NCBI GenBank assembly: GCA_021432655.1
Contig: MU271334.1
Coordinates: 62,001-87,688 of the forward strand
Direction of reading: 5' to 3'
Origin: Atractiella rhizophila
Lineage: Eukaryota
Length of the DNA stretch: 25,688 bases
Every line of letters starts with the position of its first letter. Positions within the stretch are counted from its first letter, which is position 1. A program made the translations under genes and the position numbers. The notes under the pieces are model-generated. The model saw nothing but the letters and a program-made list of their open reading frames with translations. It was not told the origin of the DNA and ran no database searches. This document shows positions 852 to 24,198 of the stretch, piece by piece.

Positions 852-2518
852 TCAGAGCTTGAACCCTCCTGGCACTTGCCGCTGAAATACACCTTTTGGA
901 TCGTATTTTTTGCTCATCTGTTTCAGAAAGGCTAGGTTTTTGGCACCATAGCCCTCAAACGGCTTCTGTGAAGGGTTCGCGTAGTTGATGTATTGGTATT
1001 GCCTGAGCAGCCCACTCTCCTCCGCAGACTTGTCTAGTTCAGCTAAGAGCGACTGAGCCTGGGTACTGATCTCGGAACAAGAGGAGGAATCGGGCCAAAT
1101 TGCTGTCAAAAGCAGAACTGTATCACCTTTCGTGAGGTAAATGGGGAAAAGAGTGAAGACAGGCGTACCAAAATCATTCCCTTCTTGGGATATGCCGAAG
1201 ATGTCGTTCTTTGTAAGCTTTTTAATGGCAGTTGGAAAAGGCTCCAATGCTATGTCCCATAGCACACCGCCTGTTGGGTTAAAGGAATACACCGTTGAGT
1301 TGACAATGTTGAAGAAGTTTTCCAATAAAGGAAGTGATACGCCATAAGTGCCTGTGTAAAACGCCCAATTCCTGTCGGTGTTGCTTTAGGGCTGCTCCAA
1401 ATATTGGAGAGGAGCATGCTCACAATGGACGTGTTGCGGCTTCCGCCGCCAGGGTCGATAGGTTTTGAATTGCCGAGCTGTTAGTTAACTGAGGTATTTG
1501 GAAGAGTTCCTCGTACACCGCTGGTCGCGCGACGGGTTTGGTATAAAGCGGATTGCTGCTGATTACCCAACTTTTGGTCGTGGAGTTAAAGATGAGGCCA
1601 GTGACGATGGATGCATGAACATCATATTCTGCGGAGTCCGCGATATTGGTGAATGCTTGAAAGATGGCTGAACTTTGACCAATCGAATTGACCACGCTGC
1701 CACCGAGTATTTGGCCAATTTGCACTGGTGTGTAATCGATGCGGGTAACAACGCCGAAATTGTTTGCTCCACCTTTAAGAGCCTTGAAAAGATCTGAGTG
1801 AGAAGTAGCGTTCACATTCGTGAGCTTTCCGTCTGCCAAAACAATCTTTTCAAACGGACATCAGCATCACTGTAATTTTAAAGCGAGAAACTACATACCT
1901 CAAAGTTGACCACTGTATCACAAGTCAATCCTACTTGCGGACTCCAATAGCTTATTCCCCCTCCTAAAGTCAAACCAGCAACACCAACAGCCCCATTCCT
2001 TCCACCAGCCACCGTAAGTCCCAAAGGATCAAGGAACCTGTAAACATCGATCCATTCGGCTCCAGCACCGACGGACACCACCTTGGTTCCATCGTCTACA
2101 GTGATGGAGTCAAGGCGGCTCATGTCAATCGTTACACCACCATCGATATTCGCGAATCCTGCAGCTGGCGCATGTGTGGCACCTTTGATCGCGAATTTGC
2201 AGTGAGAGGAAGAGGGAGCGGTGAGCACTGAAACTGCTTGTGCTAGGTCGGACGGGGAGGTGGGAGCGAGGAAGCAGGATGGGGAGAGATTGGCTTCTTG
2301 TAAAGACCAATAGGAGGAGAGCGTGGACTGGTAAGTCGCATTCGATGGATACAGTACTTTGGACGGTAAAGCTTGTTCCAAGGAAGAGCACTGTCAAGAA
2401 ACACTCAGTATGAATTCCTTTGTATAGTTATGCAGGCAATACTCACACAGTCGACACTCGCTTGACACACTGAAAACCACGTAAGGAAAAACAACAAACT
2501 AACCGCCGTCGACTTCAT
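852..2518 (-). CDS. Secreted FAD-linked oxidoreductase, berberine-bridge-enzyme/VAO (AA7-like) family, ~501 aa, 4 exons (2518-2447, 2390-1899, 1845-1424, 1371-852)
   Basis: Signal-peptide-like MKSTAVSLLFFLTWFSVCQA; FAIKGATH (position of FAD-binding His); GVAGLTLGGG; DLFKALKGGANNFGVVT; C-terminal YINYA...KKYDPKGVFQ. Three GT-AG introns of 56, 53 and 52 nt keep the frame. Confidence 0.92.
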
Positions 2519-3695
2519 TTCCGCCGTCACTGTAGATGCCGGGTGAAGGAAGGCGTTTCTTTTGAGGCTAACGATGTGCTATTTTCGGAGGAGTCTCTGG
2601 TCATGCAGCCATGCTGTGGATTGCGGAAGCGACCGAAAAACGCGAGAGGAATATCCTCACGGCTCTTTTGGCCGTATTCTTGATCCTTTGCAAGTACCCT
2701 TGAGTTTGAAACATAGAGCAGCTTGGGAAAGGCTCCTCCTGCAGCGCCTCTTTCAGTTAACCGATTTATCAAGGCATTTGGATCAGTTTGATAATGTCTG
2801 TAAATTTTTCGAAAGTCTATGTACAAGCAGCCTTGAGCAGAATAACACCTTGATTTCCAGCTGAAGCAAGAGTAGCTTCTCTTTAGGGAGAGGATCCGTT
2901 CTCTGGCGGCTCTCACCTCAGGATTTGGCAGGAAGAATGTGACAGCTCCTGCTTCCAAACTCATCAGCACTCATTTCAAACAGAAAGCACGTCACGGGAG
3001 AAGAAGCGAAGCGAAGCGCATCAGAGTAACTATGAAAGCCATCCTCGACGTTGTTATACGTCTCTAGCTCCTTTCTCACGAGAGGAGGTTCGATGCAGAA
3101 TACGGCGGTGCAGCTCATCCTTTGCTTTGTATCGCAAGCAATGACCTAACCATAACAGGAGAAAATAACTCACTTCGCATGAATTGATCGCTACTCATCC
3201 TTCTTCCATGCTGCTATGCATGATCCATTCTCATTCTAGTTATACACCTAGCGCATAGAACGCGACTGTTCTGTAACTGTACTTCATGCATGCTTCATGG
3301 TGGTTGAAACTAGTGAAAGAAAAAATTTGGCGAAGCGAAGTTCCCAAGGAGCGCGACTCCGCTGCTTGCGCTCACCCGCGCCCTCCACAGAGCAAGCGCG
3401 TTTCATATAAATACCCACCGAAACCTTCGACGCGCTTTGACTCGTCCTAGCTCCTTCAATTTCGCTGTTCGTCCCAAATATATAATTCCAAACGCTCCCC
3501 AGCAAATTCTCAAGGTTCCTTTTGGATCCCATCAACTACAAGACGACTTTCCTTCTCTGCTCACTTCATCGCCCCTTCTTCCTTCCCCTCACCAGGAGGT
3601 ATCTCCAAATATCCCAGTTCTGCACATCCCTTCATCGCTGCAAAGTTTCACGACTGCCTTACACGCGAAGACTCACCAAAACTGCCGAAATCACC

Positions 3696-6732: not shown

Positions 6733-7284
6733 GTGGAAGAAGTTTTAAGTTGAGAGAGAATAGCTAAGCTGAGAAGAAAGCGAAGTCAGTCCATTTCACT
6801 CGCTCACCGACCATTGCTAGTGGAATGAGCACAAAACCTGCGAGAAGGTACTGCAGTAAGTTTTTCAATATGTCAACCAACCTGGGACCTCGTTTTGGTG
6901 GTTACTGCAATAGAAATTGAACTTCAACACTGAGATCATTGAAAAATGGACAAGGAACGAGGTGGGAAAAAAAATTGACGACGCCTGTGTGATTCGAACA
7001 CACGCCCTCGAAAGGAATGCCTTAGCAGGGCATCGCGTTAACCACTCCGCCAAAGCGCCAATGTCACTATTTTCTTTATGTGCGTTCTCTTAGGTGTCAC
7101 AAAAACAATAACCCATTCTCTTCAACTGCCATCAATTGCATTGAGTCGACACCAAGTCGTAAACTTGCCAATTACCATCCTATACATTCTTCATGTAAGT
7201 CCATAGACGTGATTAGATGGTTCCAATCTCTGACGTCCCCATAGACTTCAAGTTTTGCACGCATTACCACCATCAAAAGCAAGG

Positions 7285-9857: not shown

Positions 9858-11540
9858 AAAATCAGACATCCTATTCTCGGTCGCGATCACTCGAATTTTC
9901 AATCTAGCCACAGTGGTACGATATTTCCTTTGTGACGCGGTCCCAAGAACTGTCGAAACTATTCTAACCTACCCAGTCATAGGAGTAGTCTCCCGTAGAA
10001 CAACCTCCGACACAACGGGGGATGGGCAAAACCCAAAGGTATACGCGTTGTATCTGAATGAATTACCAGCTTGACGGAAAGGTTACTCCTTTCAAGACAC
10101 TTTGCTCTTCTTCGTTTCAAAGTGCACGCCTCAAATAAATTTCAGACATGTGCCTAGTGTTCAAATTCAGGCTTTAGGAATCTAGTTCAATTCTCATTTG
10201 GTTGCAACTTCACGGTTATAGTACATGACATGATGTTTATTTGGTTCGACCTTTGATAAAAAAAACTTGACTCTTTCGGATTTCTAGGGTTTGTCATCAT
10301 TTTGGTAATCATTATAGTATATTAACCCCGTGACCTCGTTGTCTGGTGATTTCCAACAGAGTTAGCAAATCTAAATGACCATACTTCGCTAATCACACTG
10401 TCTAGAATATTTTCATGTAATGGACACCTGGGCAAAAAGAGAATGGCACAACTCTTGGTTGTTAAACGATTTTGATGGCTTTGCTGAGTGTAAACAAGGT
10501 GGCAACAAAAAGCAGTGAGTAATATTCGACATCGCAGGGATTTACTAATGTTTAGCAAGGGGAACGTGAATTTTCCGTCTCGGAGTGCACTACAGGCTGT
10601 CCGGGAGATCACATGTACAACACAGGCAACGACAGGTTGGTGAGATGACATGATCATAGGTGATATCAAAATGAGGGCAAAGATACAGTCATAGACAATG
10701 TTAACGTTACCAACAACAACAACATCATGGGTGATGACAGCGTGGTAGAGGAAAGCGGCGAACCCGTCTCGCGTGAAGTCTCCCCCACCACCACCCAAAT
10801 CTGTCAGACCGTTACACCAACAGGACGACATCGAATCCACTCTGAGCTCCCTTCCAAACATGCTCACGTTGCAGTCATGCAGGTTCTCCTGCATTGCATC
10901 GGCACCACATGGACTGACGTTGCTTCTTGCTTGAATCGATGTTCTCTTGGTTGCGTCTGTTGTGGTGGTAGATGGATGCCAGAATCAGGATGAGTTGGTC
11001 GACGTTAAGAGTGGTCGAAAAGAGAGCAGAGCTGTCGCGCTTTGTAAGGTCTGTTGAACCGAGAAACAAATTAGAAGCCCCTCAACACGCTGTAGGAACT
11101 GTCAGATCCACCCCTGGGATACTGGTGAGAAGGAAAAATTGACCCCTGGGGGTTTGCGGGATTCTGCACCTCAGTTCGGCAAAGATGTGCACGTAAGAAT
11201 GGTCCAGTTTTCAACACGACATTGCCGACACTGTAATTGCCCAGAAAGTTGCAAGTTTGCCTAAACCTCACTTTTTGCTCCTGTCTAAGAAATGTGAGTG
11301 ACTCTCTGCAGGGTATCTTGTGTTGACCTGTTGCTAAAAGGGTGATCCGAAGACCAGGGGTCGACTTTCCAGTCATCTGTCCCTGGAAAGACCCTCCACC
11401 ATTCGTAAGGTGGAGCTCAGAGGAACCTCGGTACAGTCTTGGATGGCTACTCGAAGGAGAATTATACCGATCCATGAGCATGGAGTTCTTGAACAGGCCG
11501 GATAGAAATGCTACAAGCTGCCTGTCAGGTTTGCATCTTA

Positions 11541-11641
11541 CGCAAATCGGCGCCCGTTCGCCGGATTGCGTCTCTTATTGCCCATTTGCGTTCCCTGCGA
11601 ATCGGCGCCCGTCGCCACTGCGTCTCCCGTCGCCCATTTGC
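11541..11641 (+). repeat. GC-rich imperfect tandem duplication (~55 bp period) in the U3 part of solo LTR A
   Basis: AATCGGCGCCCGT at 11545 and 11600; TGCGTCTC and GCCCATTTGC each occur twice. Confidence 0.75.
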
Positions 11642-11823
11642 ACCTACATCACCACTTAGCCAATTGTGCCTAACCTCCTCTTATTAACTCCATGTAATCC
11701 CACTGCCACTTCCCCTTTTAGTTCTCTTACATGTTTCATCTGCTCTCCTCCACGCTCTGTGGCAGTGTTATTCCGCTTGTATATATAGATCCGAGAGTAG
11801 TGGAGGTGACCTTAGAGTATTCT

Positions 11824-11892
11824 CTTAGGTTTATCTCCACTACAGGTTAGTCTTCATGTCATATCATGCACTTAGGTTTATCTCCACTACAG
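11824..11892 (+). repeat. Direct repeat X-(GT..)-X in solo LTR A defining a 47-nt intron-like unit at 11846-11892
   Basis: CTTAGGTTTATCTCCACTACAG at 11824-11845 and 11871-11892; the spacer starts GTTAGT; hairpin GTAGTGGAG/CTCCACTAC at 11797-11843. Confidence 0.85.
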
Positions 11893-12048
11893 ACGCATCG
11901 CCTATCGGCGACCGCACATAGTGTCAGCCCTAACACTGCCTCATCTTTGTGCTAAAAAGTGGGAGAGCGAGAACATGTTTGTCACTCCCTGAACCACCCT
12001 TCGAAGTCTTTCTACATTTAATGTGTTAAAGGGAAGGTCCACTCGCTG

Positions 12049-12543
12049 TGTTAGAATTGGTGGTTTTTATTAGACGTTCTTATATGTTTCTTCCTCTTTG
12101 TCTTATTGTTGTAACGCGTCTTCCATATTTGTACGTGATTGCGGAGTTTTGTGGTGTTTGTTTTATGTGGGCACTTCGCCACTTTGCCGGGACTATAAAA
12201 GACTTATCCTGTTTTCTTCAAATCTTTTCCCCAATCGATTTGCTTGTCATTTCACTGCTTACACTCGATTGGGGAAACCAGGTATGTTCATTACTTTATT
12301 CACTTGAAATACCAAATCGATTTGCTTGTCATTTCACTGCTTACACTCAATTGGGGAAACCAGGTATGTTCATTACTTTATTCACTTGAAATACGAATCG
12401 ATTTGCTTGTCATTTCACTGCTTACACTCGATTGGGGAAACCAGGTATGTTCATTACTTTATTCACTTGAAATACAAATCGATTTGCTTGTCATTTCACT
12501 GCTTACACTCGATTGGGGAAACCAGAGCAAATCCTTTCTCTTT
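12049..12543 (+). repeat. 5' LTR of the copia element (495 bp) with ~3.6 copies of an 81-82 bp unit
   Basis: Starts TGTTAGAATT, ends CTTTCTCTTT; unit starts at 12233, 12315, 12396 and 12477. Confidence 0.96.
12194..12200 (+). promoter_or_regulatory. Candidate TATA box of the copia LTR
   Basis: TATAAAA 39 nt upstream of the first repeat unit; same motif in the 3' LTR. Confidence 0.6.
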
Positions 12544-12555
12544 TGGTAGCGAGAG
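12544..12555 (+). other. Primer-binding site TGGTAGCGAGAG (probably initiator tRNA-Met)
   Basis: Directly follows the 5' LTR; TGG complements tRNA CCA; the first 8 nt equal the yeast Ty1 PBS start TGGTAGCG. Confidence 0.75.
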
Positions 12556-12597
12556 AGTGTTGCGAACAGCGACATCGAAGAGAAATCTGCGCGCGAA

Positions 12598-15500
12598 ATG
12601 TCACGACAAGAGCCCACCACTCCTGAAAATCAAACGAGAGCTGCGAACGATACACCTCAACCTCCGTCTCGTGCCCCTCCTCCTAGAAGTACGGTTACTC
12701 CTCCCCTCATCGATCCCTCATCATTCTCCATTCCACTCTCTCTCTCAAACAGTGGCAGAAGTGGGGAAATGTCGGTGAATGGCGCGATTCAAAGCCTCCT
12801 CGCGAACGATCCCATTCCTGAACTTGATTACAACAACGCGAAGATATTTTTCAAGCTCATCGATCAAGCGTTTAGAGCATATGGTGTTGCGTTGGTTACC
12901 GAAGGCGTTCTTACGGAGCCGATAAATCCTAAGACAGGAATCACGCTGACCGAACAAAGGAGGATCATGCAATCTGGAGGTACCATCAGCATCAGGGAAG
13001 CAACGGAGGAGAGAATCGAAGCGTATATGAGGGCGCTTACGGTTTATCAGCAAAAAGCTGCAATTGCGATGGCGTTATTGAGGAAAGCTGTGGGAAATAC
13101 GGCAAAAGTCTTTATCGAAGGAACCAAAGATCCTGTCAATGCTATGAAGATTCTCAAGCAAAAATTCGATACAACGCAGTATATCGACGTGGCTCACCTG
13201 CTCAAGGAACTCCTCGATTTCGTCTTCCCTGCCAGTGGACTCTCTCTCTCCGATTGGATTGCGAAGTTGCACGAAAAACGTAGACACTTCAACGAAGCGC
13301 AGTCAACTATTCAGATTTCGGACGCTTTTCTCTCCTTGATCCTTATCAACGGTCTTGATGAGCCTCTCCGGAGATGGCTTTCCTCTACCGGGGTGACACA
13401 AACGGATCTCGCGACCGTTGTGCAGAAGCTTACAGCAGAGGAGCAAGCCAGGAAGAACAGGGGAGGGAGCATGGAAGATGCGGGATTGTCACTATTTGCA
13501 AGGATGGAGGGTCAACAAAAGCAGAACAGCACTCCCAAGAAGTCCAACTCCGCTAGCCTGGCCGCGCGAATCTCCTCTCCGAACAAATCTGGCACTAGAA
13601 CTCCAACGAAGCCTGCTGCGTCAACGTCGCGATCTCCTCCTGTTACACCTCTCATCAACAGGATCGCTCCAAACGCGCGAGCACTCAAGAACTGGGGAGA
13701 ATGGCCACATGGCACTTCCCCCAAGGGTTTCTTTCGTATTGGACTTAACCAGTGCTACCATTGTGGACAAGAGGGACACTGGGGAAGAGAGTGTACCTTG
13801 CCTAAGCACCAACAGATTGATTCCCTCGTACGAGAATTCAAAAAGTTCAACATCGATCTACCTCGAGCAAACGCCAACGCTTTCCTCATCAAGGTCTTCG
13901 ATGAAGGAAACGCTCCTGCGATTTTTGCTGAAGATATCAATCCAGAGACTCAACGTCCTTATTTCGAAGAACCAGATGTCATCTCGAGCTATGACAATCA
14001 TTCTCAAGACGTGAATTCTGCGCACTACGTCATACACACCTCTGATGGCAAGATGGACGAAACGTTTGTAGCTGGGGACTTTGGGGCGTATCTGGCGATG
14101 GTGAATGACGATGATACCTTGGAGCAGGGAGATGAATTGGAACCTCTCATTCAAGAACCAGCTTTCGAGATTTTTACGAAACAAGACAACTTCTGGACAG
14201 AGGATGTTAGAGAGTTGGAAATCGTTCATGCCCTTTCTGCTTTCGCCGCGCAGCTTCAAGATGAAGACCAGGTTATCCGTGTTGCAGGAGCGTCAAACTA
14301 TCTCGACGACTTCCTCGCCACGATGGAAACCAGAGACAGGAAGGATGTCGAAGGCTTGAGTGCTGAGCATAAGATTGTTCAAGATGGCCTCAAGCAGAAG
14401 TTGAAGGATGTCGTCGATTACGTGTTGAAGAACCTCTCGCCTGCCACTCTCAGCGTTCCACCCCAGTTGGAACGAAGGGGTGATAGTGGTCAGGGAGAAG
14501 GTGGTTTAGGGGAGTCGATGGTGGTGCCATCGCTCTCCAGCAGCTCGAATCACGGAAAGGAGCAAGATGATCTCAAACTGGGTGGTACTGTCCAAAACGC
14601 ATTCGTAGTGTCTCCCGTAAATCTTTCGATGGATCACGTTCCCGTCCACCCTCCTACGAATCCAGATGCGAAGCAGGAACGATTTCACCTTGATTCTGGC
14701 GCCTCTATTCATCTTACGGATTCTCAGAGGTTACTTCACAACTATCGAGAACTCCAGGTGCCCATCGCGATCACTGGAGTTTTCGGTTCGACTGGTTATG
14801 CTGTCGGAGTGGGAGACTTGAGACCAGTTTTTCAAGCATGGAACGGGTTGATCCACTCTGGGACGATTAGAAACGTATTCTACGCACCCCAGCTCGGAGT
14901 AAACCTCATCTCCTCGAGAATCTTGATGAAGTCTGGAGTAAAGTTTACCAACGACACTAGAACCGTGTACCTAGCTGGAAGAGACGATAAAGTGTTCGGG
15001 ACTTGCGAAATAGGTCACAAACTTATCACCCTTCAGGCGAGTTTCATCCCAGCCTCTCCCTCGTCCCCTCGACCAAATGCTTCTCTAAATGCTTTCCCTG
15101 CAGTATCAATGCGTACCTGGCACCTCCGTCTAGGACATCCCGGAATGGATAGGCTTAAGCAAGCCATAAAGGATGGATTGGTTTTGGATTCTCAAATAAA
15201 GTCTTGCAATGAGAACGAAGTTCAACAGTGCGTTGTATGTGCGAAAGGGAAAGCACGTTACGATAAGAGCAAGACGCCTGAAAAGGACAGAGAAAGCGTT
15301 GTGGGAAGGACTTTTGGTTTCGATACTTGGGGACCGGCTTCAGTGAGGAGCATCCAAGGATATCACTATGGTTATGGGGCAATCGATGAAGCATCGCGAT
15401 TCATGGTCATCGGAGGGATGAAATCGAAGTCAGAAGCCCCTGAGAAAATAGAAGATACGAGGGCTTTCATTAAAAGGGAGAAAAATCAGGACGTGTGCAT

Positions 15501-18303
15501 AATCAGGCACGATAGAGCGATGGAATTCACTTCAAAGGCAGTTGAAGAGTGGAAAAAGAAGCACAACATCACATCGATGAGAACGCTTCCGTATGCGCAT
15601 GAACAAGGGGGGCTCTGGGAACGTCAGTGGTACACACTCCTGAATATCACGCGTTGTCTCCTCATTCAGTCTGGGCTCCCGTTATCGTTTTGGTACGAAG
15701 CAATCAAAGTTGCAGTAAAGCTACGGAACATAATGCCAACGAAGGGAAATAAGGATGGAAAGTCAGCGTATGAGGTGTTCTACGGCAAGAAACCGGACAC
15801 GACGCATCTAAGGACATTCGGTTGTCTTGCTGCTGTGACTATAATGCCAGAAAAAAGGGGATCGAAACTATCGCCAAGGGCGAAGTTGATGTACTTTGTC
15901 GGATACGTCTCAGACGGATACGGGTGGCGTTTTTGGGACCCAGAAGGAGGCCCAACAAAGATTGTTGAGAGTCGATCCGCGAAGTTCTTCGAAGATAAGT
16001 TCTATGAGAAGAGGTCAGAACAAGACCAGGAAATTTTGAGGAAGATGAGTACGGACGGTCTCCTTTTGTTATCGCCGCCACATGGAGATGATGAAGACGA
16101 GGATGACGATGACGGAGTACTGGAAGAGGAGTTGGATGGACCTCATGTAACACGATCAACCGAGGAACGGGAATGGAAACCACGAACCGTTGATTTTTCA
16201 AGCAGGCCGTCTCCATCTCCACCACCCTCTCCCTCTCCCGTACCAAGGTCCACTCTGTCCATAGATCAGAACACATCGCCCCCGGAGTTCACCCACTCGT
16301 CGAATTCATCTCGAGTTCCCGCACCCAGGAACGTCCGACATATGGTGACCGCTTTTGAACAGAATCTAGAGAGAGAACGCCAGCACGCGAAGGAAACTGA
16401 AATCTTCACACCAATGAAGAATGCCTTGAGGAGGGGGTTACGTAGAAAGGAGAGGAGGGACTACCGACAAATGCATGAGAAAGGACTGTGTACGATAGCT
16501 GAGGGAGATTTAGCTGTTGAAGACCTCCTCCGAGGAGTGACAACGGCAAAATCGGATGGTGGGACTCATGCCCTTCTTGCGCGCATCTCGGAGGGACCGT
16601 ATCACTTCCTAATCCCTGACGAAGATGACGATGAAGAGTTTGAGGTTTATTGGACCGGAAATCTTGATGAGCCATCGTATGCGCAGGCAATGGCAGGGGC
16701 GGATGCTGAAAAATGGAGGATGGCTATGGATACAGAGATGGCGGCGTTAGATGCGATGGGGACATGGAGAAGGAAATGCATTGAACTGCCGTCAGGTCGT
16801 AAGGCGTTGGGAGTAAAGTGGGTGTTGTTGATCAAACGAGAACCGGATGGGACGGTGCGAAAGTACAAAGCGAGACTGGTGGTGCGGGGAGATCAGCAGA
16901 CAGAAGGGGTCGACTATGCGGAAACTTGGTCACCTACCGTGCGGATGACATCCCTTCAAGCGATAATGGCACTATCTGCTGTGCTCAAACTCCACCGTCG
17001 TCAGTTCGATATTGGCAATGCATTCCTCAATGGGAAGTTAGACGAAGAGGTCTACGTAAGACAGGCGCCTGGATACACTGACCCATCCAATCCGAAAGCA
17101 GTGCATCAGCTCTCGAAGGCCCTGTATGGACTGTGTCAAGCTGGCAGACAATTTAATATCGATCTTCATGAAAAACTTACCAACATCGGTTTCCGTAGGA
17201 CCGAATCCGATCACGGCGTATACACGCTATCTCGTGGAAAGGATTTTATCTTCCTGTGCCTCCACGTCGATGATGGATTATTGGTGTCCACCGACGAAAA
17301 ATTAATCGATAACATCTTGGACAACTTGCGAAAACACTACAAGGTCGAATCCGGTGAGGCAAAGCTGTTTCTGGGGATTGAATTGGAGGGGGACGAAGGA
17401 AGGGGGTTGTTAAAAGCGCATCAAAGGGGGTATGCGAAGAGGCTGGTCGAGCGTTACCTAGGGACGCAGGTGTCACCAGTGAGGATGCCAGTCGATTACG
17501 GGAAACGGCTTACCCCAGATTTGTCACCGAAATCAGAGGTTGAACGGGAATCCATGAAGCATGTCCCTTATCGCGAAGCCGTGGGAGCGCTCATTTATCT
17601 CACGACTTGTACTCGTCCGGATATCGCATTCGCTGTTGCAGATGTCGCTCGATATTGTGCGGACCCTGGGGTGCAACACTGGTTAGCTGTGAAGCGAATA
17701 CTTCGTTACATAGCGGGGACTTACGACTACGGGCTTCATTTTGACGGATATCAACACTCCAGCACGGCATTCGACGCCTATGTGGACGCGGATCATGGGG
17801 CAGACCCTTCCACCAGGAGGTCTGTTTCCGGTGTCCTCTTTCGCCTAGGGGGATCCGCAATTTCTTGGATTTCGAAACGGCAGCTGAGCGTAGCAATTTC
17901 GTCCACCGAGGCGGAGTATATTGCAATGTCATTGGCTACACGCGAGGCCGTATGGCTACGTCGTTTGTTTTTCGAGTTAGGATTTAGTCAAGAGGGACCT
18001 ACCTTGATCAGGGGTGATAACCAGGGTGCAATTACTCTCGCTTCGCACCCGGTTGCTCATGGAAGAACAAAACACATTGAAGTCCACTATCATTACACTA
18101 GAGAAAAGGTGTTAGACCAGTCCGTCCTCTTGAAATGGATTCCTACCAGGCAACAATTGGCGGACATCCTCACAAAAGGCCTGGCGGCGAACCTGCAGCT
18201 TCGTTTCTGTTTCCAGATTGGCTTGTTGGGAGACTCTGCAAGCGTGGAGTTCCTCGATCGGGACGTGGATGGACTTGGAGGAAATGGAGCAGTGTCGAAG
18301 TGA
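12598..18303 (+). CDS. Copia Gag-Pol polyprotein, single ORF, 1901 aa
   Basis: Zinc knuckle CYHCGQEGHWGREC; protease LDSGAS; WHLRLGH...CVVC; integrase FDTWGP / RHDRAMEF / LWER; RT KYKARLVVRG, FDIGNAFLNG, ALYGLCQA, HVDD; RNase H YVDADH, TEAEY, DNQGA, LADILTK. Confidence 0.98.
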   Translation: MSRQEPTTPENQTRAANDTPQPPSRAPPPRSTVTPPLIDPSSFSIPLSLSNSGRSGEMSVNGAIQSLLANDPIPELDYNNAKIFFKLIDQAFRAYGVALVTEGVLTEPINPKTGITLTEQRRIMQSGGTISIREATEERIEAYMRALTVYQQKAAIAMALLRKAVGNTAKVFIEGTKDPVNAMKILKQKFDTTQYIDVAHLLKELLDFVFPASGLSLSDWIAKLHEKRRHFNEAQSTIQISDAFLSLILINGLDEPLRRWLSSTGVTQTDLATVVQKLTAEEQARKNRGGSMEDAGLSLFARMEGQQKQNSTPKKSNSASLAARISSPNKSGTRTPTKPAASTSRSPPVTPLINRIAPNARALKNWGEWPHGTSPKGFFRIGLNQCYHCGQEGHWGRECTLPKHQQIDSLVREFKKFNIDLPRANANAFLIKVFDEGNAPAIFAEDINPETQRPYFEEPDVISSYDNHSQDVNSAHYVIHTSDGKMDETFVAGDFGAYLAMVNDDDTLEQGDELEPLIQEPAFEIFTKQDNFWTEDVRELEIVHALSAFAAQLQDEDQVIRVAGASNYLDDFLATMETRDRKDVEGLSAEHKIVQDGLKQKLKDVVDYVLKNLSPATLSVPPQLERRGDSGQGEGGLGESMVVPSLSSSSNHGKEQDDLKLGGTVQNAFVVSPVNLSMDHVPVHPPTNPDAKQERFHLDSGASIHLTDSQRLLHNYRELQVPIAITGVFGSTGYAVGVGDLRPVFQAWNGLIHSGTIRNVFYAPQLGVNLISSRILMKSGVKFTNDTRTVYLAGRDDKVFGTCEIGHKLITLQASFIPASPSSPRPNASLNAFPAVSMRTWHLRLGHPGMDRLKQAIKDGLVLDSQIKSCNENEVQQCVVCAKGKARYDKSKTPEKDRESVVGRTFGFDTWGPASVRSIQGYHYGYGAIDEASRFMVIGGMKSKSEAPEKIEDTRAFIKREKNQDVCIIRHDRAMEFTSKAVEEWKKKHNITSMRTLPYAHEQGGLWERQWYTLLNITRCLLIQSGLPLSFWYEAIKVAVKLRNIMPTKGNKDGKSAYEVFYGKKPDTTHLRTFGCLAAVTIMPEKRGSKLSPRAKLMYFVGYVSDGYGWRFWDPEGGPTKIVESRSAKFFEDKFYEKRSEQDQEILRKMSTDGLLLLSPPHGDDEDEDDDDGVLEEELDGPHVTRSTEEREWKPRTVDFSSRPSPSPPPSPSPVPRSTLSIDQNTSPPEFTHSSNSSRVPAPRNVRHMVTAFEQNLERERQHAKETEIFTPMKNALRRGLRRKERRDYRQMHEKGLCTIAEGDLAVEDLLRGVTTAKSDGGTHALLARISEGPYHFLIPDEDDDEEFEVYWTGNLDEPSYAQAMAGADAEKWRMAMDTEMAALDAMGTWRRKCIELPSGRKALGVKWVLLIKREPDGTVRKYKARLVVRGDQQTEGVDYAETWSPTVRMTSLQAIMALSAVLKLHRRQFDIGNAFLNGKLDEEVYVRQAPGYTDPSNPKAVHQLSKALYGLCQAGRQFNIDLHEKLTNIGFRRTESDHGVYTLSRGKDFIFLCLHVDDGLLVSTDEKLIDNILDNLRKHYKVESGEAKLFLGIELEGDEGRGLLKAHQRGYAKRLVERYLGTQVSPVRMPVDYGKRLTPDLSPKSEVERESMKHVPYREAVGALIYLTTCTRPDIAFAVADVARYCADPGVQHWLAVKRILRYIAGTYDYGLHFDGYQHSSTAFDAYVDADHGADPSTRRSVSGVLFRLGGSAISWISKRQLSVAISSTEAEYIAMSLATREAVWLRRLFFELGFSQEGPTLIRGDNQGAITLASHPVAHGRTKHIEVHYHYTREKVLDQSVLLKWIPTRQQLADILTKGLAANLQLRFCFQIGLLGDSASVEFLDRDVDGLGGNGAVSK

Positions 18304-18310
18304 AGGGGGG
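18297..18310 (+). other. Polypurine tract
   Basis: GAAGTGAAGGGGGG immediately before the 3' LTR, overlapping the pol stop codon. Confidence 0.85.
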
Positions 18311-18642
18311 TGTTAGAATTGGTGGTTTTTATTAGACGTTCTTATATGTTTCTTCCTCTTTGTCTTATTGTTGTAACGCGTCTTCCATATTTGTACGTGA
18401 TTGCGGAGTTTTGTGGTGTTTGTTTTATGTGGGCACTTCGCCACTTTGCCGGGACTATAAAAGACTTATCCTGTTTTCTTCAAATCTTTTCCCCAATCGA
18501 TTTGCTTGTCATTTCACTGCTTACACTCGATTGGGGAAACCAGGTATGTTCATTACTTTATTCACTTGAAATACAAATCGATTTGCTTGTCATTTCACTG
18601 CTTACACTCGATTGGGGAAACCAGAGCAAATCCTTTCTCTTT
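18311..18642 (+). repeat. 3' LTR of the copia element (332 bp) with ~1.6 copies of the 81 bp unit
   Basis: Equals the 5' LTR minus 163 bp (82+81); units start at 18495 and 18576. Confidence 0.96.
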
Positions 18643-18947
18643 CGCTGGATTTGACTTCTTGAAAGATGGGGATTTTATTCCTGTGCTCACATTCACAATG
18701 AACACATCGAAGACGCTGCTGAACAAAGCGGTGGATGAAGTATATGTGCAGAGAGGAAAGAATGTGTTTGGAATAAAGGAGGATCCTCAATGGTATTGTC
18801 ACCCCTGTACCAATGCTAACCCTTCCATATCCTCACATGCAGCATATTGTCCTCTTCCTCATCATGAGCCTCACACAGAATGTCTTCGAAGTTAATGCTG
18901 TAAGTCTTGTTGCAGGAATGTGTCTTTGTGCAACCCAGGGGAGATGA

Positions 18948-19426
18948 TGTTATGGCAGGCACTATGTGTGGTTGCCGGCAGGGCGATGCATCTGTAGTGG
19001 AGATAAACCTAAGTGATATATGCCATGAGAAGACTAACCTGTAGTGGAGATAAACCTAAGAGAATACTCTAAGGTCACCACCACTACATCTTGATGTATA
19101 TATACATATGTAATGGCACCATCACAAACTGTAAAATGTATCTCTTGAAACATGTGGAATATCTAGATCAGGAAAGTAACAAAGGGAATAGCCAGAAATA
19201 AGATATACTAAGTAGGACGAATGAGAAAGGACATCAAGACAAAAATGGTGATGGTGCAGACCGGCGAAAAGTATAAGGTTTACTGAGCAGCGACTTGTGT
19301 GAGTAGAGGGAAGGCGGTGGAGAGTGTGGGAGTATGCAAAGCGGCGACGAGTAGACACGTGACTCTATGAGTAGGTCACGTGACTTGGATTGGTGCATTT
19401 CAGTAATGTGCGGGGCAAGTCTGACA
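18948..19426 (-). mobile_element. Solo LTR B (479 bp), related to solo LTR A, opposite orientation
   Basis: On the minus strand it starts TGTCAGACTTGC (A: TGTCAGGTTTGC) and ends CATAACA; flanks GATGA (18943-18947) and GTTGA (19427-19431), 4/5 match; TATATATA at 19097-19104; 22-nt repeat at 18992-19013 and 19039-19060. Confidence 0.78.
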
Positions 19427-19578
19427 GTTGATAAGGTAGCTATAGATTGAATGACCTTTTGGCTCAAGAGTGAGCAGCAAATAGGATAGTCAGGGGTCGG
19501 TGGGTGGTCAAAGGGCTTGATGAAGTGGACTGGTATGTGGTGTTCTTGTCTCATACTCTTCGAAAGATTTCTTGATGA

Positions 19579-19774
19579 TGTGAGAGGCTCGTTCGGCTCT
19601 GCTCTAGATGGTGAACAACCACTCTCAGGATGCATTGCAGGACCTACCTGCTCTAGATGGTGAACAACCACTAGAGCAGGAGAGGAGGAAGTGTACTACA
19701 TAGCGGGGCAAAGTGGGGCAAAGCACGAAGACAACGGTGGGCGGTGTGGTGAGTGCCATGCTCCCACTCTCACA
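19579..19774 (-). mobile_element. Solo LTR C (196 bp), different family
   Basis: Perfect 8-bp terminal inverted repeat TGTGAGAG/CTCTCACA; perfect TSD GATGA (19574-19578, 19775-19779); 25-nt direct repeat at 19599-19623 and 19648-19672. Orientation inferred from the splice-like signals. Confidence 0.82.
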
Positions 19775-21053
19775 GATGACATCTTTGCCCTCATCCTTGG
19801 AATATTGGACCGAGTGGAAGCCTTTGTCAACAAGTGCAACTCTTTGAACCCCACAATACCATCAGATACGCTAGGGCATGCTCAAGTGTCAAAGAATTTG
19901 ACAAGATGATCTCACTCTTCACAGTATGCCTCCAATGCAGAGGATACCGCTCAAGCTCATAAGGTCACAACTATCTATGGTCAGGCACAAAGATCGCCGG
20001 CACTATCTAGAAGAGAAGGAGAATAAGAAAGATATCCTCCCACTCCTCTTCAAAGTGGAGTCAAACCCATTCCCAGCAAGGGACAGGATTCACCCCCCAC
20101 TTCGACTTCATGCATTCATGCACCAAGCACAAAGAAAGCTCATTTCAGCCTTTAAAAGTGGGGAGAATCGAGGGGAAATAAACAACTCATAGTTAGATCA
20201 AGTTACGTTGTGCCAACTTTCATCCATGACTGGTATTTCCGAACATAACCCTCTTCCCGTACACGTACACGGTCACTCAGGAGTCAGGCGCAGGCCGTTA
20301 TGAAGCTCGTCCAGCAATCATAGCCTCTTTCACCGTAACAAATATCTATGTCTAACAGACGCAAACTTACCTGAGCCGCTAGCATTCATTTTCTTCCAAC
20401 TCACGACCTTATCCTCCCCTTTGGTGGCATGGCATGCATGCAATGTCATTCTGCACAATTGCCAGAGTGTGCGGTGTTTTGCAAACTCTCATGATAGTTT
20501 CACGTAGAGTTTCACGCATTCGAGGTTCACCAAATATTTCACAGCTTTTCTTCAACAGAAAATGTGAATAGTCGACGACCTGCTACCTAGCACGTCCTGA
20601 GGTACTTGATACGGCGTAGAGAGGAGTGAAATATTTTATTTGGCGCGTACAGAGTAATAGAACCGGTGGTGAGAGGTCAGTCCATTTTTTTGCACAAAGA
20701 ATGGGAATGTCCTGTAGGAGAATGAAGATGCAAGAATCTCTTTCTTTAGCGACCCCTTAGTCCCGGTTGAGGGCTCGCTCATTTGTTTGTTTCAAGTGAA
20801 TTGAAGCAGATGTTTTGGTTTGCCATGCTCATGCGCTTTGAAGCAAACTTAGCTTTCTTTCGCAACTTGTTGGGAAACTCCTTGAACAATAACAGCCATA
20901 ATATGCCTTCGAATCAAATTGATGAGACATGCTAAATATGAGTTCCAGACATTCTTGTGCGGAGAGGAGGTTTATCGTTTCCCAACTCCTCAATGTTTAC
21001 TTTCGCAATGTTCCGCGACTGAACTGCTCTAAACAGCGGCTTCCCCATTCACG

Positions 21054-21878: not shown

Positions 21879-21991
21879 TCCCAAAAGTACTACCATGGTA
21901 TATTTGCGTATATTGTACACAGTTATCTAGTTGGAAATGCAGTCCATCTTTCTTTACCTCTCTGCAGCGTTATCTAACTCCCTCCTGAACG

Positions 21992-24198
21992 TCAGCCCAA
22001 GTCTCCTCTCTTTCTACTTTGCCCTACATCCTTTATTTGTTCTGCCCTCACCTTGCCACAGCTGTTGCCGTCATTTCCATTTGCATCGAGTTCATCACCA
22101 ACACCGATGATCTTAAGGAAATACTTAGTAGGCAACCATTCTTGCAAAAAGACTGTGGACTCAGCGTACTCATCAATGCAAAACTTCAGGTTGGCGATAT
22201 GTTCAGTCATTTTAACTGCTGGTCCGGTGCAACACTTGACATCGAAGGGTAGTCAGGGATTTGAGGGATTTGAGTTGTTGATACTGTCGAAGACGCATAG
22301 GTGTTTGGCTACAATGTTCAGAACATTCCACCACGATAAATATATTGTACCACCTTACTCAGCCAGAAATGGCGTACATCTTTCTTTACACCATTTTTAC
22401 TTCCGTTATCCTTCGTCCCCACCAACTGTCCTTCCAACCCTCCACCGTTTCGAGGTCAGTTTCCCACCCACCTACTCCCATCCACTCGTTTTGTTTAGCA
22501 TCGTCGTCCAATCTCCCTCTGGTGCTTTCAAAAGTTAGCAGCTTGTTCTCCTCCCAAATGTTGGTAGTCGCGATTCGCTGACGAATCGTATGTTCGTCCG
22601 GCTTCTCTAACAAACTTCCACAATACTCGACGACCCGTTCCACATCTTTTCGTTCCCGACTTTGGGGATCCTTTTGAAAGACTTGAGCTGGGTCCCGCAA
22701 AAAGGCAGAACTGTGCTTCCATATCGAATGACGTCGCTCGTAATTGGGTAGCTGCCGTTCACATTCCAGCAGGAGGATTTGCCGGGCTAAAGGAATAAAA
22801 GAGAGATGGTAGACATATTCGAAAAAGACTGTCAATGGGTTAGTGCGTGTCGCCTGCAGGGAAGGAAAGCGTGCGTGGCCAAGTCCGTTGTGTTTGCAGC
22901 ACCGTTTCAATCGTCACTCTCTCCCGCCGTGGATCGGTTGGAGCGTTGTGGAACCATATCCAGCTTTACCAGCGATCAGTTACAGATCATAGCCAAAGAG
23001 GACGGTATTCACATCAGAGTGTTCCGCAACATTTCGAGCGATGGTAGCGGCTCCAATTTCCACCATTGCTCACTGTTCGCACCATCACAACGGTAAGGGA
23101 GATATGATGAGAAACACTTACACAAGCTTCGCACCATGTTGATGGCTCCATACGGCGAATCCTCTCTTTTCTTTCTTCAGGTCATTGATACGAGGCAACT
23201 CGTCCTGTGACTTGCCGTGGAAGAAGGTAATCGATTTCTCAAGACCTTGATTTGCGTTCGCTGTTACAGACGAGATCAGGGGATGTTGTATGAAGGCTAA
23301 AACGTACGAATGTAACGCAGAATGCCACCAAAACGCCTTCGTGTCAATTCGGGCTTAGAAAAGAAGCCAGACAGATCACTGGGAACTCGAAGCAGATCAA
23401 AGTCTTTGGTTTCAGATTCGTCCAATGTGCAATACTCTGGACCGACAATAAATTTTCGCACTTGATCCATCATTGTTTCAAGTCTGCTGTAACAGTAAGA
23501 TGGGAAATCAGTGATAAAGGATGTACCCTTCCCATGACCAATAGGAACTAGAAGGCAGGTTAGGACCTGATGTGATGTTTACACTCAACCGTGAGATGAG
23601 CTCCTTATTTGCGTTCCTCTGAGAAATTCTTCCAGTGATTGTGATGGATGGAATCCCCTCCTTTGGGACTGAATGGTTGGCACGCTCCTTGTTCTGTATA
23701 ACGCTCTGCTCTCGTTTTGTTTGAGGTGCTGGTTTGGTGTTTATTTTCATTTTCCCAGCTTCGACTGGACCTGGTTCCTCCCCCTGACCCAAACTTGTGG
23801 TTCGCGGTGACTTCAACTCTCTCCGATGCCTTTTCGAGGGTCGCTCTGCGTCCTGCTCTTGAAATTGAGCGTCCCGTCGCTTCTTACGTTCGACTAAATG
23901 AGCAGGCTCAGCTTCCGGTCCTGAACCGCTCGTTTCTGCGAATCGCTAATGTCAGCGGGCTTAGATAGGATGATAAAGGATTGGGCTCGCCAGCATCTCC
24001 TGCCACATCGTTACTTCCTTCACCATCATCTGTTGCGTCTTGCGCTTTAGCTTCCCGCAACCGTCTCTGCCTCTCCAGGAAGTCCTTTTGAAATGTGCTG
24101 AGCGTATTCTCCAGTCGATCCTGCCAGGATGTTGTCGATTCTGGGCTGAATCGTAATCTATCGATTATCGGTTTTGTCTCCTCCGCGTCAGAATCCAT
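21992..24198 (-). CDS. Hypothetical multi-exon protein (start and last exons uncertain)
   Basis: Successive minus-strand ORFs joined by short introns give a continuous translation (MDSDAEETKP...RLETMMDQVRKF...EQWWKLEPLP...FFEYVYHLSF...). No family recognised. Confidence 0.6.

Follow-up and report, generated by a model that had tools for sequence, protein, structure and literature searches.

How can a retrotransposon that is copied through RNA hold on to an intron, and why would unrelated elements carry the same intron-like arrangement at the same place in their long terminal repeats (LTRs)? This question is raised by a nest of retroelements in the basidiomycete Atractiella rhizophila, located at positions 11523–19774 of a 25,688-nucleotide (nt) stretch of contig MU271334.1 (assembly GCA_021432655.1, positions 62,001 to 87,688 of the forward strand), named here the window. 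The nest comprises an intact Ty1/copia retrotransposon, two solo LTRs (A and B) and an LTR-like repeat (C). All five LTRs, which fall into three families, display the same order of parts: a hairpin, a block (X) ending in CAG, a spacer (S) starting with GTNNGT, a second X ending in CAG, and a tail. S and the second X may together form a complete short spliceosomal leader intron in each LTR, with X acting in addition as the terminal repeat (R) used for minus-strand transfer, a combined reading that the sequence makes possible, if still short of probable. A retrotransposon replicating via a processed RNA should lose its intron, yet intron-less genes yield little mRNA in several basidiomycetes, as stated in the available portions of two studies (PMC3744415, PMC4935854).

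The shared architecture is real and non-random. When the right edge of X is set objectively, as the point where the copies cease to match, it falls at CAG/GTATGT in the copia LTRs, at CAG/GTTAGT in A and B and at CAG/GTAGGT in C, that is, at the same kind of junction in three of three families. Per position of the window, the motif CAGGTNNGT has a frequency of 1.95e-4, corresponding to 7e-12 for three independent families. The last X also ends in CAG in the three families and is followed by an unrelated tail. X starts 30–44 nt past the TATA-like box, so the repeats lie downstream of TATA and not upstream of it, as enhancer repeats of the unique 3′ region (U3) would. Direct repeats of at least 18 nt with a spacing below 150 nt are confined, within the 25.7-kb window, to those of the LTRs (D1, D5, D6 and D7 of 11 repeat families), no copy of X or of a spacer is present elsewhere in the window, and the hairpins show z-scores of −4.55 (copia), −3.42 (A), −2.27 (B) and −2.64 (C). 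Spacers from different families are unrelated to one another, and blastn finds no similarity between the copia LTR, A/B and C (best E 0.056). The region preceding X and the tail show no similarity to S in the four LTR types (265 to 1750 of 2000 shuffles score equally); as both are unlike S and S is single, X–S–X is not an integer tandem duplication. An earlier inspection of the letters of the window (the original prediction) had described this layout in all five LTRs, an X beginning 30–44 nt after the TATA-like box and an architecture shared without visible sequence likeness; all of this is recovered here, with blastn detecting similarity between A and B only.

The copia element (12049–18642, plus strand) is delimited by its LTR pair and by a target-site duplication (TSD), CGCTG, on both sides (12044–12048 and 18643–18647). 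Its open reading frame (ORF; 12598–18303) is intact and encodes a product of 1901 amino acids with gag, zf-CCHC, integrase and RVT_2 regions, the Pfam matches following the order gag, protease, integrase, reverse transcriptase (Retrotran_gag_2, zf-CCHC, Pol_BBD, gag_pre-integrs, rve, SH3_retrovirus and RVT_2, the latter at 3.6e-50). Two direct LTRs with a TSD and a reverse transcriptase of RVT_2 type place the element in Ty1/copia. The boundary of its LTRs was fixed by the TSD and not by canonical termini. A sequence resembling a primer-binding site (PBS), TGGTAGCG, directly follows the 5′ LTR, and a purine run precedes the 3′ LTR. As a separate observation, the PBS reads TGGTAGCGAGAG and the LTR terminus reads ..CTCTTT, not ..CA (window positions 12544–12555 and 18298–18310).

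Repeat and fold analysis resolves the plus-strand 5′ LTR (495 nt; 12049–12543) into TATAAAAG at 12194–12201, hairpin arms at 12226–12238 and 12265–12277, and four X blocks (12233–12281, 12315–12363 with 1 mismatch, 12396–12444 and 12477–12525) alternating with three spacers of 33, 32 and 32 nt (12282–12314, 12364–12395 and 12445–12476), followed by the tail (12526–12543) and then the PBS. The mismatch is a single G-to-A change at position 12349 in the second X, and the spacers differ in their final bases (..ATACCA, ..ATACG and ..ATACA). In the 3′ LTR (332 nt; 18311–18642, plus strand), the same analysis places TATAAAAG at 18456–18463, the hairpin arms at 18488–18500 and 18527–18539, X1 at 18495–18543, the spacer at 18544–18575, X2 at 18576–18624 and the tail at 18625–18642. 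This LTR thus has two X, and its spacer is the ..ATACA variant found as the third spacer of the 5′ LTR. Apart from the number of units the two LTRs are 100% identical. In both, X measures 49 nt, the S + X unit 81–82 nt and the perfect stem TTTCCCCAATCGA/TCGATTGGGGAAA 13 base pairs (bp). Tandem Repeats Finder describes the 5′ LTR repeat as a simple array with a period of 81 nt and 3.6 copies.

Solo LTR A (413 nt; 11523–11935, plus strand) has TG..CA ends and a perfect TSD, CTGCC. It contains TATATATA at 11780–11787, an outer 5′ hairpin arm at 11797–11805, X1 at 11824–11845, a spacer starting GTTAGT at 11846–11870, X2 at 11871–11892 and a tail at 11893–11935. Solo LTR B (479 nt; 18948–19426, minus strand) also has TG..CA ends and is flanked by GATGA/GTTGA (4/5 matching); its TATATATA is at 19097–19104, its 5′ arm at 19079–19087, X1 at 19039–19060, the spacer at 19014–19038, X2 at 18992–19013 and the tail at 18948–18991. 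The TG..CA termini, the flanking pentamers and the very high summed depth of the A/B core described below identify both as solo LTRs. They belong to the same superfamily, although only their last 162 nt are common to both (88% by blastn) and the U3 of B cannot be aligned. In A and B the X is exact over 22 nt (27 nt with 2 mismatches), the unit is 47 nt, and the stem (9 bp in A, 8/9 bp in B) lies within a longer imperfect hairpin.

Repeat C (about 19429–19774, minus strand) adjoins B and has an uncertain 3′ boundary. Its hairpin arms occupy 19671–19680 and 19647–19656, X1 19648–19672, the spacer (GTAGGT...) 19624–19647, X2 19599–19623 and the tail the remainder to about 19429. This repeat has an X of 25 nt, a unit of 49 nt and a 10-bp stem that includes the donor G. 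The TATA-like box is degenerate, and the tail would be about 170 nt if the LTR ends near 19429. The status of C as a solo LTR is less firm, its 3′ end being uncertain and its contig depth low; other contigs match 19426–19578 and 19636–19774. B and C stand head to tail on the minus strand with one pentamer between them (GATGA / B / GTTGA / C / GATGA, 18943–19779), as if two insertions had successively used one 5-bp target, or as if both had entered as one composite. Separately, at position 18763, in the unique sequence between copia and B, the window has T and both DNA sequencing runs have A at full depth, which reflects either divergence between strains or a mistake in the assembly.

These maps agree with the predicted dimensions of X, unit and stem in every family (49 nt with a perfect 13-bp stem in copia; 22 and 47 nt in A/B; 25 and 49 nt with a 10-bp stem in C), and with the caveat that the TATA of C is degenerate. 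For copia, the expected X / GT-spacer / X succession is present, but the difference between four X in the 5′ LTR and two in the 3′ LTR had been overlooked, and nothing had been proposed as to why X is duplicated; and the short tail ascribed to every LTR does not hold for C if its LTR ends near 19429.

The layout is not general to copia LTRs, as judged from distant copia relatives taken from metagenome contigs (80 loci, 27–46% identity), 14 of which have LTR pairs. Nine of these 14 were examined, with L026, L029, L072 and L073 dropped as near-duplicates and L033 as a 105-nt partial. None of the nine has X..AG/GT..X; seven have no repeat of at least 14 nt within 160 nt, and the other two have a repeat of 14–15 nt. 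A protein search with the open frame spanning the copia 3′ LTR, aimed at further LTR copies, returned 39 candidates, none at E ≤ 0.001. A search of Rfam at E ≤ 1 over 11400–20000 gave two chance-level matches, both inside the ORF.

To what extent the units resemble introns was judged against a host gene of the window (855–3635, minus strand), whose product is 99% identical to a protein attributed by its source to Atractiella rhizophila and is annotated as FAD (flavin adenine dinucleotide)-binding. Threading this protein onto the window places five introns, in this one gene, of 46, 1028, 53, 52 and 51 nt in order. Their donors are GTGAGC, GTGGGT, GTATGT, GTGAGC and GTACGC, with G at +5 in five of five, and their acceptors AAG, CAG, AAG, CAG and CAG (three CAG and two AAG); the exons end in GAA, TCG, GAG, ATT and TTG, none of them CAG. 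The gene model itself shows a peculiarity. It requires the 1028-nt intron (2391–3418, minus strand), the other four being 46–53 nt, and a 147-amino-acid open frame (2527–2970) lies within this long intron; the model may be mistaken in its 5′ exons.

Against this reference, the S + X units can be compared with introns feature by feature. All three donors (GTATGT, GTTAGT and GTAGGT) have G at +5, as do the five host donors, and every unit ends in CAG, in agreement with GT..AG introns. Since no host exon in this gene ends in CAG, the CAG that closes X fits the requirement of an acceptor better than a donor-side consensus. The units of A, B and C (47, 47 and 49 nt) match the short host introns (46–53 nt), as the original prediction had it for all unit sizes; the copia unit falls outside this range. 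A CTNA branch-like motif occurs exactly once in the copia, A and C units and twice in that of B (CTCAT 34 nt and CTTAG 18 nt from the end), and in all four units one CTNA is located 18–26 nt before the 3′ end (CTTAC in copia, CTTAG in A and B, CTGAG in C). In A and B this motif stands at the start of X2, abutting the S/X2 junction, which is placed such that the C of the motif is the first base of X. The terminal AG of the 81-nt copia unit is its sole AG, a property shared by 392 of 20000 shuffles. The spacers are T-rich at their 5′ ends, and each contains one or two ATG, whereas no X contains any. A spliced copia leader of 121 nt, consisting of X, the tail and 54 nt ahead of the gag ATG, would contain no ATG, compared with three in the unspliced leader of the 5′ LTR.

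The two divergent solo LTRs add a view of which positions are retained. Their U3 regions have diverged to saturation (121/257 identical, 47%), but X1 (22/22), the first 10 nt of S (10/10) and X2 (22/22) are unchanged, and the tail is largely so (35/43); the rest of S matches at 5/15 positions (33%). An intron whose ends are constrained and whose interior is free would show such a pattern; here a full 22 nt are in addition constrained at the 3′ end. Donor +5 G, CTNA position, A/B conservation, ATG distribution and the single AG of copia, all of them in-silico evidence, give partial support to the earlier view that the layout argues for function, and these tests point to genuine splice signals. 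In our estimate, the LTR units are somewhat more likely than not to be spliced in vivo.

Other copies were sought in DNA contigs from two runs of one sample, assembled with a word of 31 nt, aligned to 18250–19850 at 80% likeness and listed above set thresholds. The core of B (19006–19113), which includes the TATA, the hairpin, X1 and the 5′ part of S, reaches a summed contig depth of 4.2–4.9e5, against 3e2–1e3 in neighbouring bins and 1e4–4e4 in the U3 of B, summed depth not being a copy number. Clearly, the core module recurs far more often than any single U3. Loose ends of contigs at 18981 and 19087 run on as A-type sequence, and one conserved R/U5 module (U5, the unique 5′ region) seems common to many LTR subfamilies with different U3. 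Backward joints from 19064–19066 to 19018–19028, with 1–10 other letters, show that other copies keep the 5′ part of S, vary its 3′ part and have a repeat reaching 4–6 nt further upstream. Their reading as copies with an extra unit was dropped, as they fit two-X copies with an X 4–6 nt longer and a differing 3′ spacer equally well. Among the joints listed, no LTR with a single X appears, none of the six skipping 47, 49 or 81 nt, a weak negative given the thresholds of the contig table.

How could such an intron survive a round of replication? From the anatomy, statistics, conservation and folding observed, we infer splicing, the transcription start, the poly(A) site and which X would be used as acceptor, and assemble them into the following cycle. 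Transcription would start at or just inside the first X, as its spacing of 30–44 nt from the TATA-like box suggests. At the 5′ end of the RNA the donor would be free, and removal of S + X2 would give an X–tail–PBS leader without upstream ATGs. At the 3′ end U3 would be transcribed as well, the hairpin would form over the first X and the donor, the intron copy would be retained and the last X would be terminal. Strong-stop minus-strand DNA, the complement of X–tail, would then anneal to the last X and be extended through S, X1 and U3, and both new LTRs would again read U3–X–S–X–tail; an unspliced template would give an identical product. By these steps the intron would be inherited from a spliced or an unspliced template alike, and X2 would be rewritten from X1 in each cycle. 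The cycle would explain why the right edge of X coincides with a splice junction, why one CAG could be both exon end and acceptor, and why the X copies stay identical while the interior of the spacer drifts; the left edge of X would lie 30–44 nt after TATA because X must reach at least the transcription start. Mis-registered transfer or slippage could alter the number of units, as in the copia LTRs. That X works as such a regenerating R is a tentative suggestion.

RNA folding bears on the proposed masking of the first X and its donor. Mean unpaired probabilities were compared between a 3′-end-like RNA (U3 to last X) and a 5′-end-like RNA starting at X1. In the 3′-like RNA, X1 and X2 are unpaired at 0.11 and 0.72 in A, 0.16 and 0.70 in B, and 0.25 and 0.41 in C. 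The first donor of A and B is unpaired at 0.14–0.20 in the 3′-like RNA versus 0.51–0.52 in the 5′-like RNA, and that of C follows the same trend (0.21 versus 0.47). In A and B, the outer 5′ hairpin arm is situated 10–18 nt after TATA, and because of this position it would belong to U3 and be transcribed only at the 3′ end of the RNA.

A selective reason for keeping an intron in the LTR may be found in the intron dependence of related fungi. Intron removal strongly lowers mRNA accumulation in Cryptococcus neoformans (PMC3744415), and expression of a reporter in Armillaria requires an intron (PMC4935854), as far as the sections of these papers at hand describe it. In its complete form, the proposal is thus of a ‘splicing-proof' LTR intron, in which the end of exon 1 would be duplicated at the 3′ end of the intron and serve as R, a U3 hairpin arm would mask the upstream copy and the donor only at the 3′ end, and three unrelated families would have converged on this solution in a basidiomycete with relatives that depend on introns to accumulate mRNA. 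Taken as a whole, it is offered guardedly, as a speculative model.

Several observations weigh against the cycle of splicing and intron renewal. The simple cycle does not predict four X in one copia LTR and two in the other; an extra event would be needed, either slippage in plus-strand synthesis with repair or a later deletion, and the retention of the third spacer variant in the 3′ LTR argues for deletion of units 2 and 3 and not for simple re-annealing. Folding gives no support to a free X2 and a masked X1 in copia, and this notion was abandoned for that element: the two are equally paired (0.42 and 0.43; 3′ arms 0.16 and 0.17), and the 5′-like RNA leaves the donor no more accessible (0.36–0.38 versus 0.41–0.42). 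At 81–82 nt the copia unit exceeds the four short host introns, which come from one host gene only. The branch-like motif specifies just three bases and is not decisive, and the acceptor of C is ambiguous, TAG and GAG preceding the terminal CAG by 5 and 3 nt. Strong-stop DNA annealing to X1 would yield LTRs with one X, and the absence of these rests on a thresholded contig table, in which one-X copia forms would be invisible since X is longer than the 31-nt assembly word. Finally, the whole basis consists of five LTRs from one window.

The same splice-signal evidence would be expected if the leader intron were real and only unspliced RNA were reverse-transcribed, as in retroviruses. The second X would then supply branch site and acceptor and perhaps offer the hairpin arm another sequence to pair with, in the manner of a splicing switch, and the duplication would play no part in strand transfer. 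Such a reading accommodates the CTNA at the very start of X2 in A and B, and also the copia fold, where the 5′ arm pairs almost solely with X1 (12.6 of 13 bp expected) and X2 is no less paired. It leaves without reason, however, the exact identity of 22–49 nt between exon end and intron end in three unrelated families and the left edge of X 30–44 nt after TATA, as a branch site and an acceptor require far fewer fixed bases, and we consider it somewhat unlikely. Removing splicing altogether, X–S–X could be a variable-number R/U5 repeat produced by template switching of reverse transcriptase near the hairpin, with CAG/GT representing another signal, for example cleavage after CA followed by a GU/U-rich downstream element, and X being an R that runs from the transcription start to the poly(A) site. 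The differing unit numbers within one element, the plain array seen by Tandem Repeats Finder, the strong hairpins located at the repeat and the T-rich 5′ ends of the spacers are all in keeping with this scenario. GTNNGT with +5 G in three of three families, the non-integer X–S–X, the conserved first 10 nt of S beside an interior of 33% identity and the single AG of the copia unit are unexplained by it; moreover, slippage should delete as readily as add, yet no one-X form is among the joints listed, which is a weak point. An origin of the module by slippage without splicing is, on balance, unlikely.

Two further explanations appear far less probable. Tandem repeats are common in LTR promoters, and a repeat beginning 30–44 nt after TATA could represent a duplicated initiator, downstream promoter element or factor-binding site, with two alternative starts and with the hairpin as a palindromic DNA site. 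As the repeats are downstream of TATA, outside U3, and as such a duplication leaves the splice-like edges and the conserved donor unexplained, we regard this as very improbable. Equally improbable is the birth of an intron either from a segment containing AGGT that was duplicated in tandem or from a mobile introner-like element that inserted and left a long target duplication, even though the unit starts with GT, ends with AG and is flanked by direct repeats. The duplication would require an integer X S X S, and it is disfavoured because tail and pre-X region are unrelated to S, scoring no better than shuffles; the introner is disfavoured because the spacers of the three families are unrelated and the same element does not recur at other sites within the window.

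With respect to known systems, the U3 enhancer tandem repeats of retroviruses and plant elements are integer arrays situated upstream of TATA. They have in common with the Atractiella repeats a variable number of short tandem units within the LTR; the latter, in contrast, lie downstream of TATA, form a non-integer X–S–X and have splice-consensus edges. A closer parallel to the proposed LTR intron is the LTR of human T-cell leukaemia virus type 1 (HTLV-1), which holds a splice donor, in its transcribed part, and an acceptor (the ‘LTR intron' of hybrid EF1alpha/HTLV promoters) and is stated to contain an intron in the consulted part of a preprint (10.1101/2023.01.28.526022). HTLV-1 is, however, a vertebrate retrovirus with an unspliced genomic RNA; it lacks the hairpin-plus-repeat layout, and that part of the preprint describes no intron whose 3′ end repeats the end of the exon (10.1101/2023.01.28.526022). 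In engineered split-intron retroviral vectors, LTR sequence is copied during reverse transcription in such a way that the following provirus gains an intron (Ismail et al. 2000, cited from a section of PMC3182074). According to the same section, the 3′ LTR of these vectors carries the donor, the acceptor is placed outside the LTR, no block is repeated, and an intron once spliced out is not restored (PMC3182074).

Functional introns are also known from the LTR retrotransposons Ogre and EVADE, where, in the available text of PMC12786077, they are internal, with none in the LTR, and make subgenomic RNAs; plant LTR elements are otherwise generally intron-less in that account (PMC12786077). SCANR (spliceosome-coupled and nuclear RNA interference) in Cryptococcus and the cryptic intron of Schizosaccharomyces pombe Tf2 likewise link transposon transcripts, introns and fungal host control, but as a host defence readout of poorly spliced transposon introns, with no LTR design or repeat architecture in the portion of the source consulted (PMC7175516). 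An exact-phrase search and broader term searches of the literature, the latter judged by titles and abstracts and all of them leaving out subscription journals, Repbase and Dfam, found no account of an intron that lies within an LTR and repeats the upstream exon at its 3′ end, in line with the original prediction, which knew of no account of this LTR design. Introns and splice signals in retroelement LTRs are already known; the replication logic proposed here is specific, testable and possibly new.

If true, the rebuilding of an intron by LTR synthesis would resolve the conflict between intron loss and intron need and would constitute a natural counterpart of the engineered split-intron vectors. 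The layout would mark transcription start, R and exon junction directly in the LTR DNA and would explain the variation in unit number. It would also offer a tractable system for the long-standing problem of the link of splicing and debranching factors with LTR-element cDNA synthesis, in which the role of DBR1 is called unresolved in the part of PMC12786077 consulted, and could guide the design of expression constructs and retro-vectors in basidiomycetes. Should one of the rival readings hold instead, the module would be an unusual but ordinary variable repeat in LTR leaders.

Two further features of the window lie outside the retroelement nest. A tRNA-Ser(GCT) gene (6977–7060, minus strand), about 4.5 kb from the nest, has a tRNA-intron-endonuclease-like gene on one side and an XAP5 gene on the other. 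Beyond the nest, a 49-nt direct repeat (21909–21957 and 22341–22389; 73% identity, spacing 432 nt) is found among unannotated open frames.

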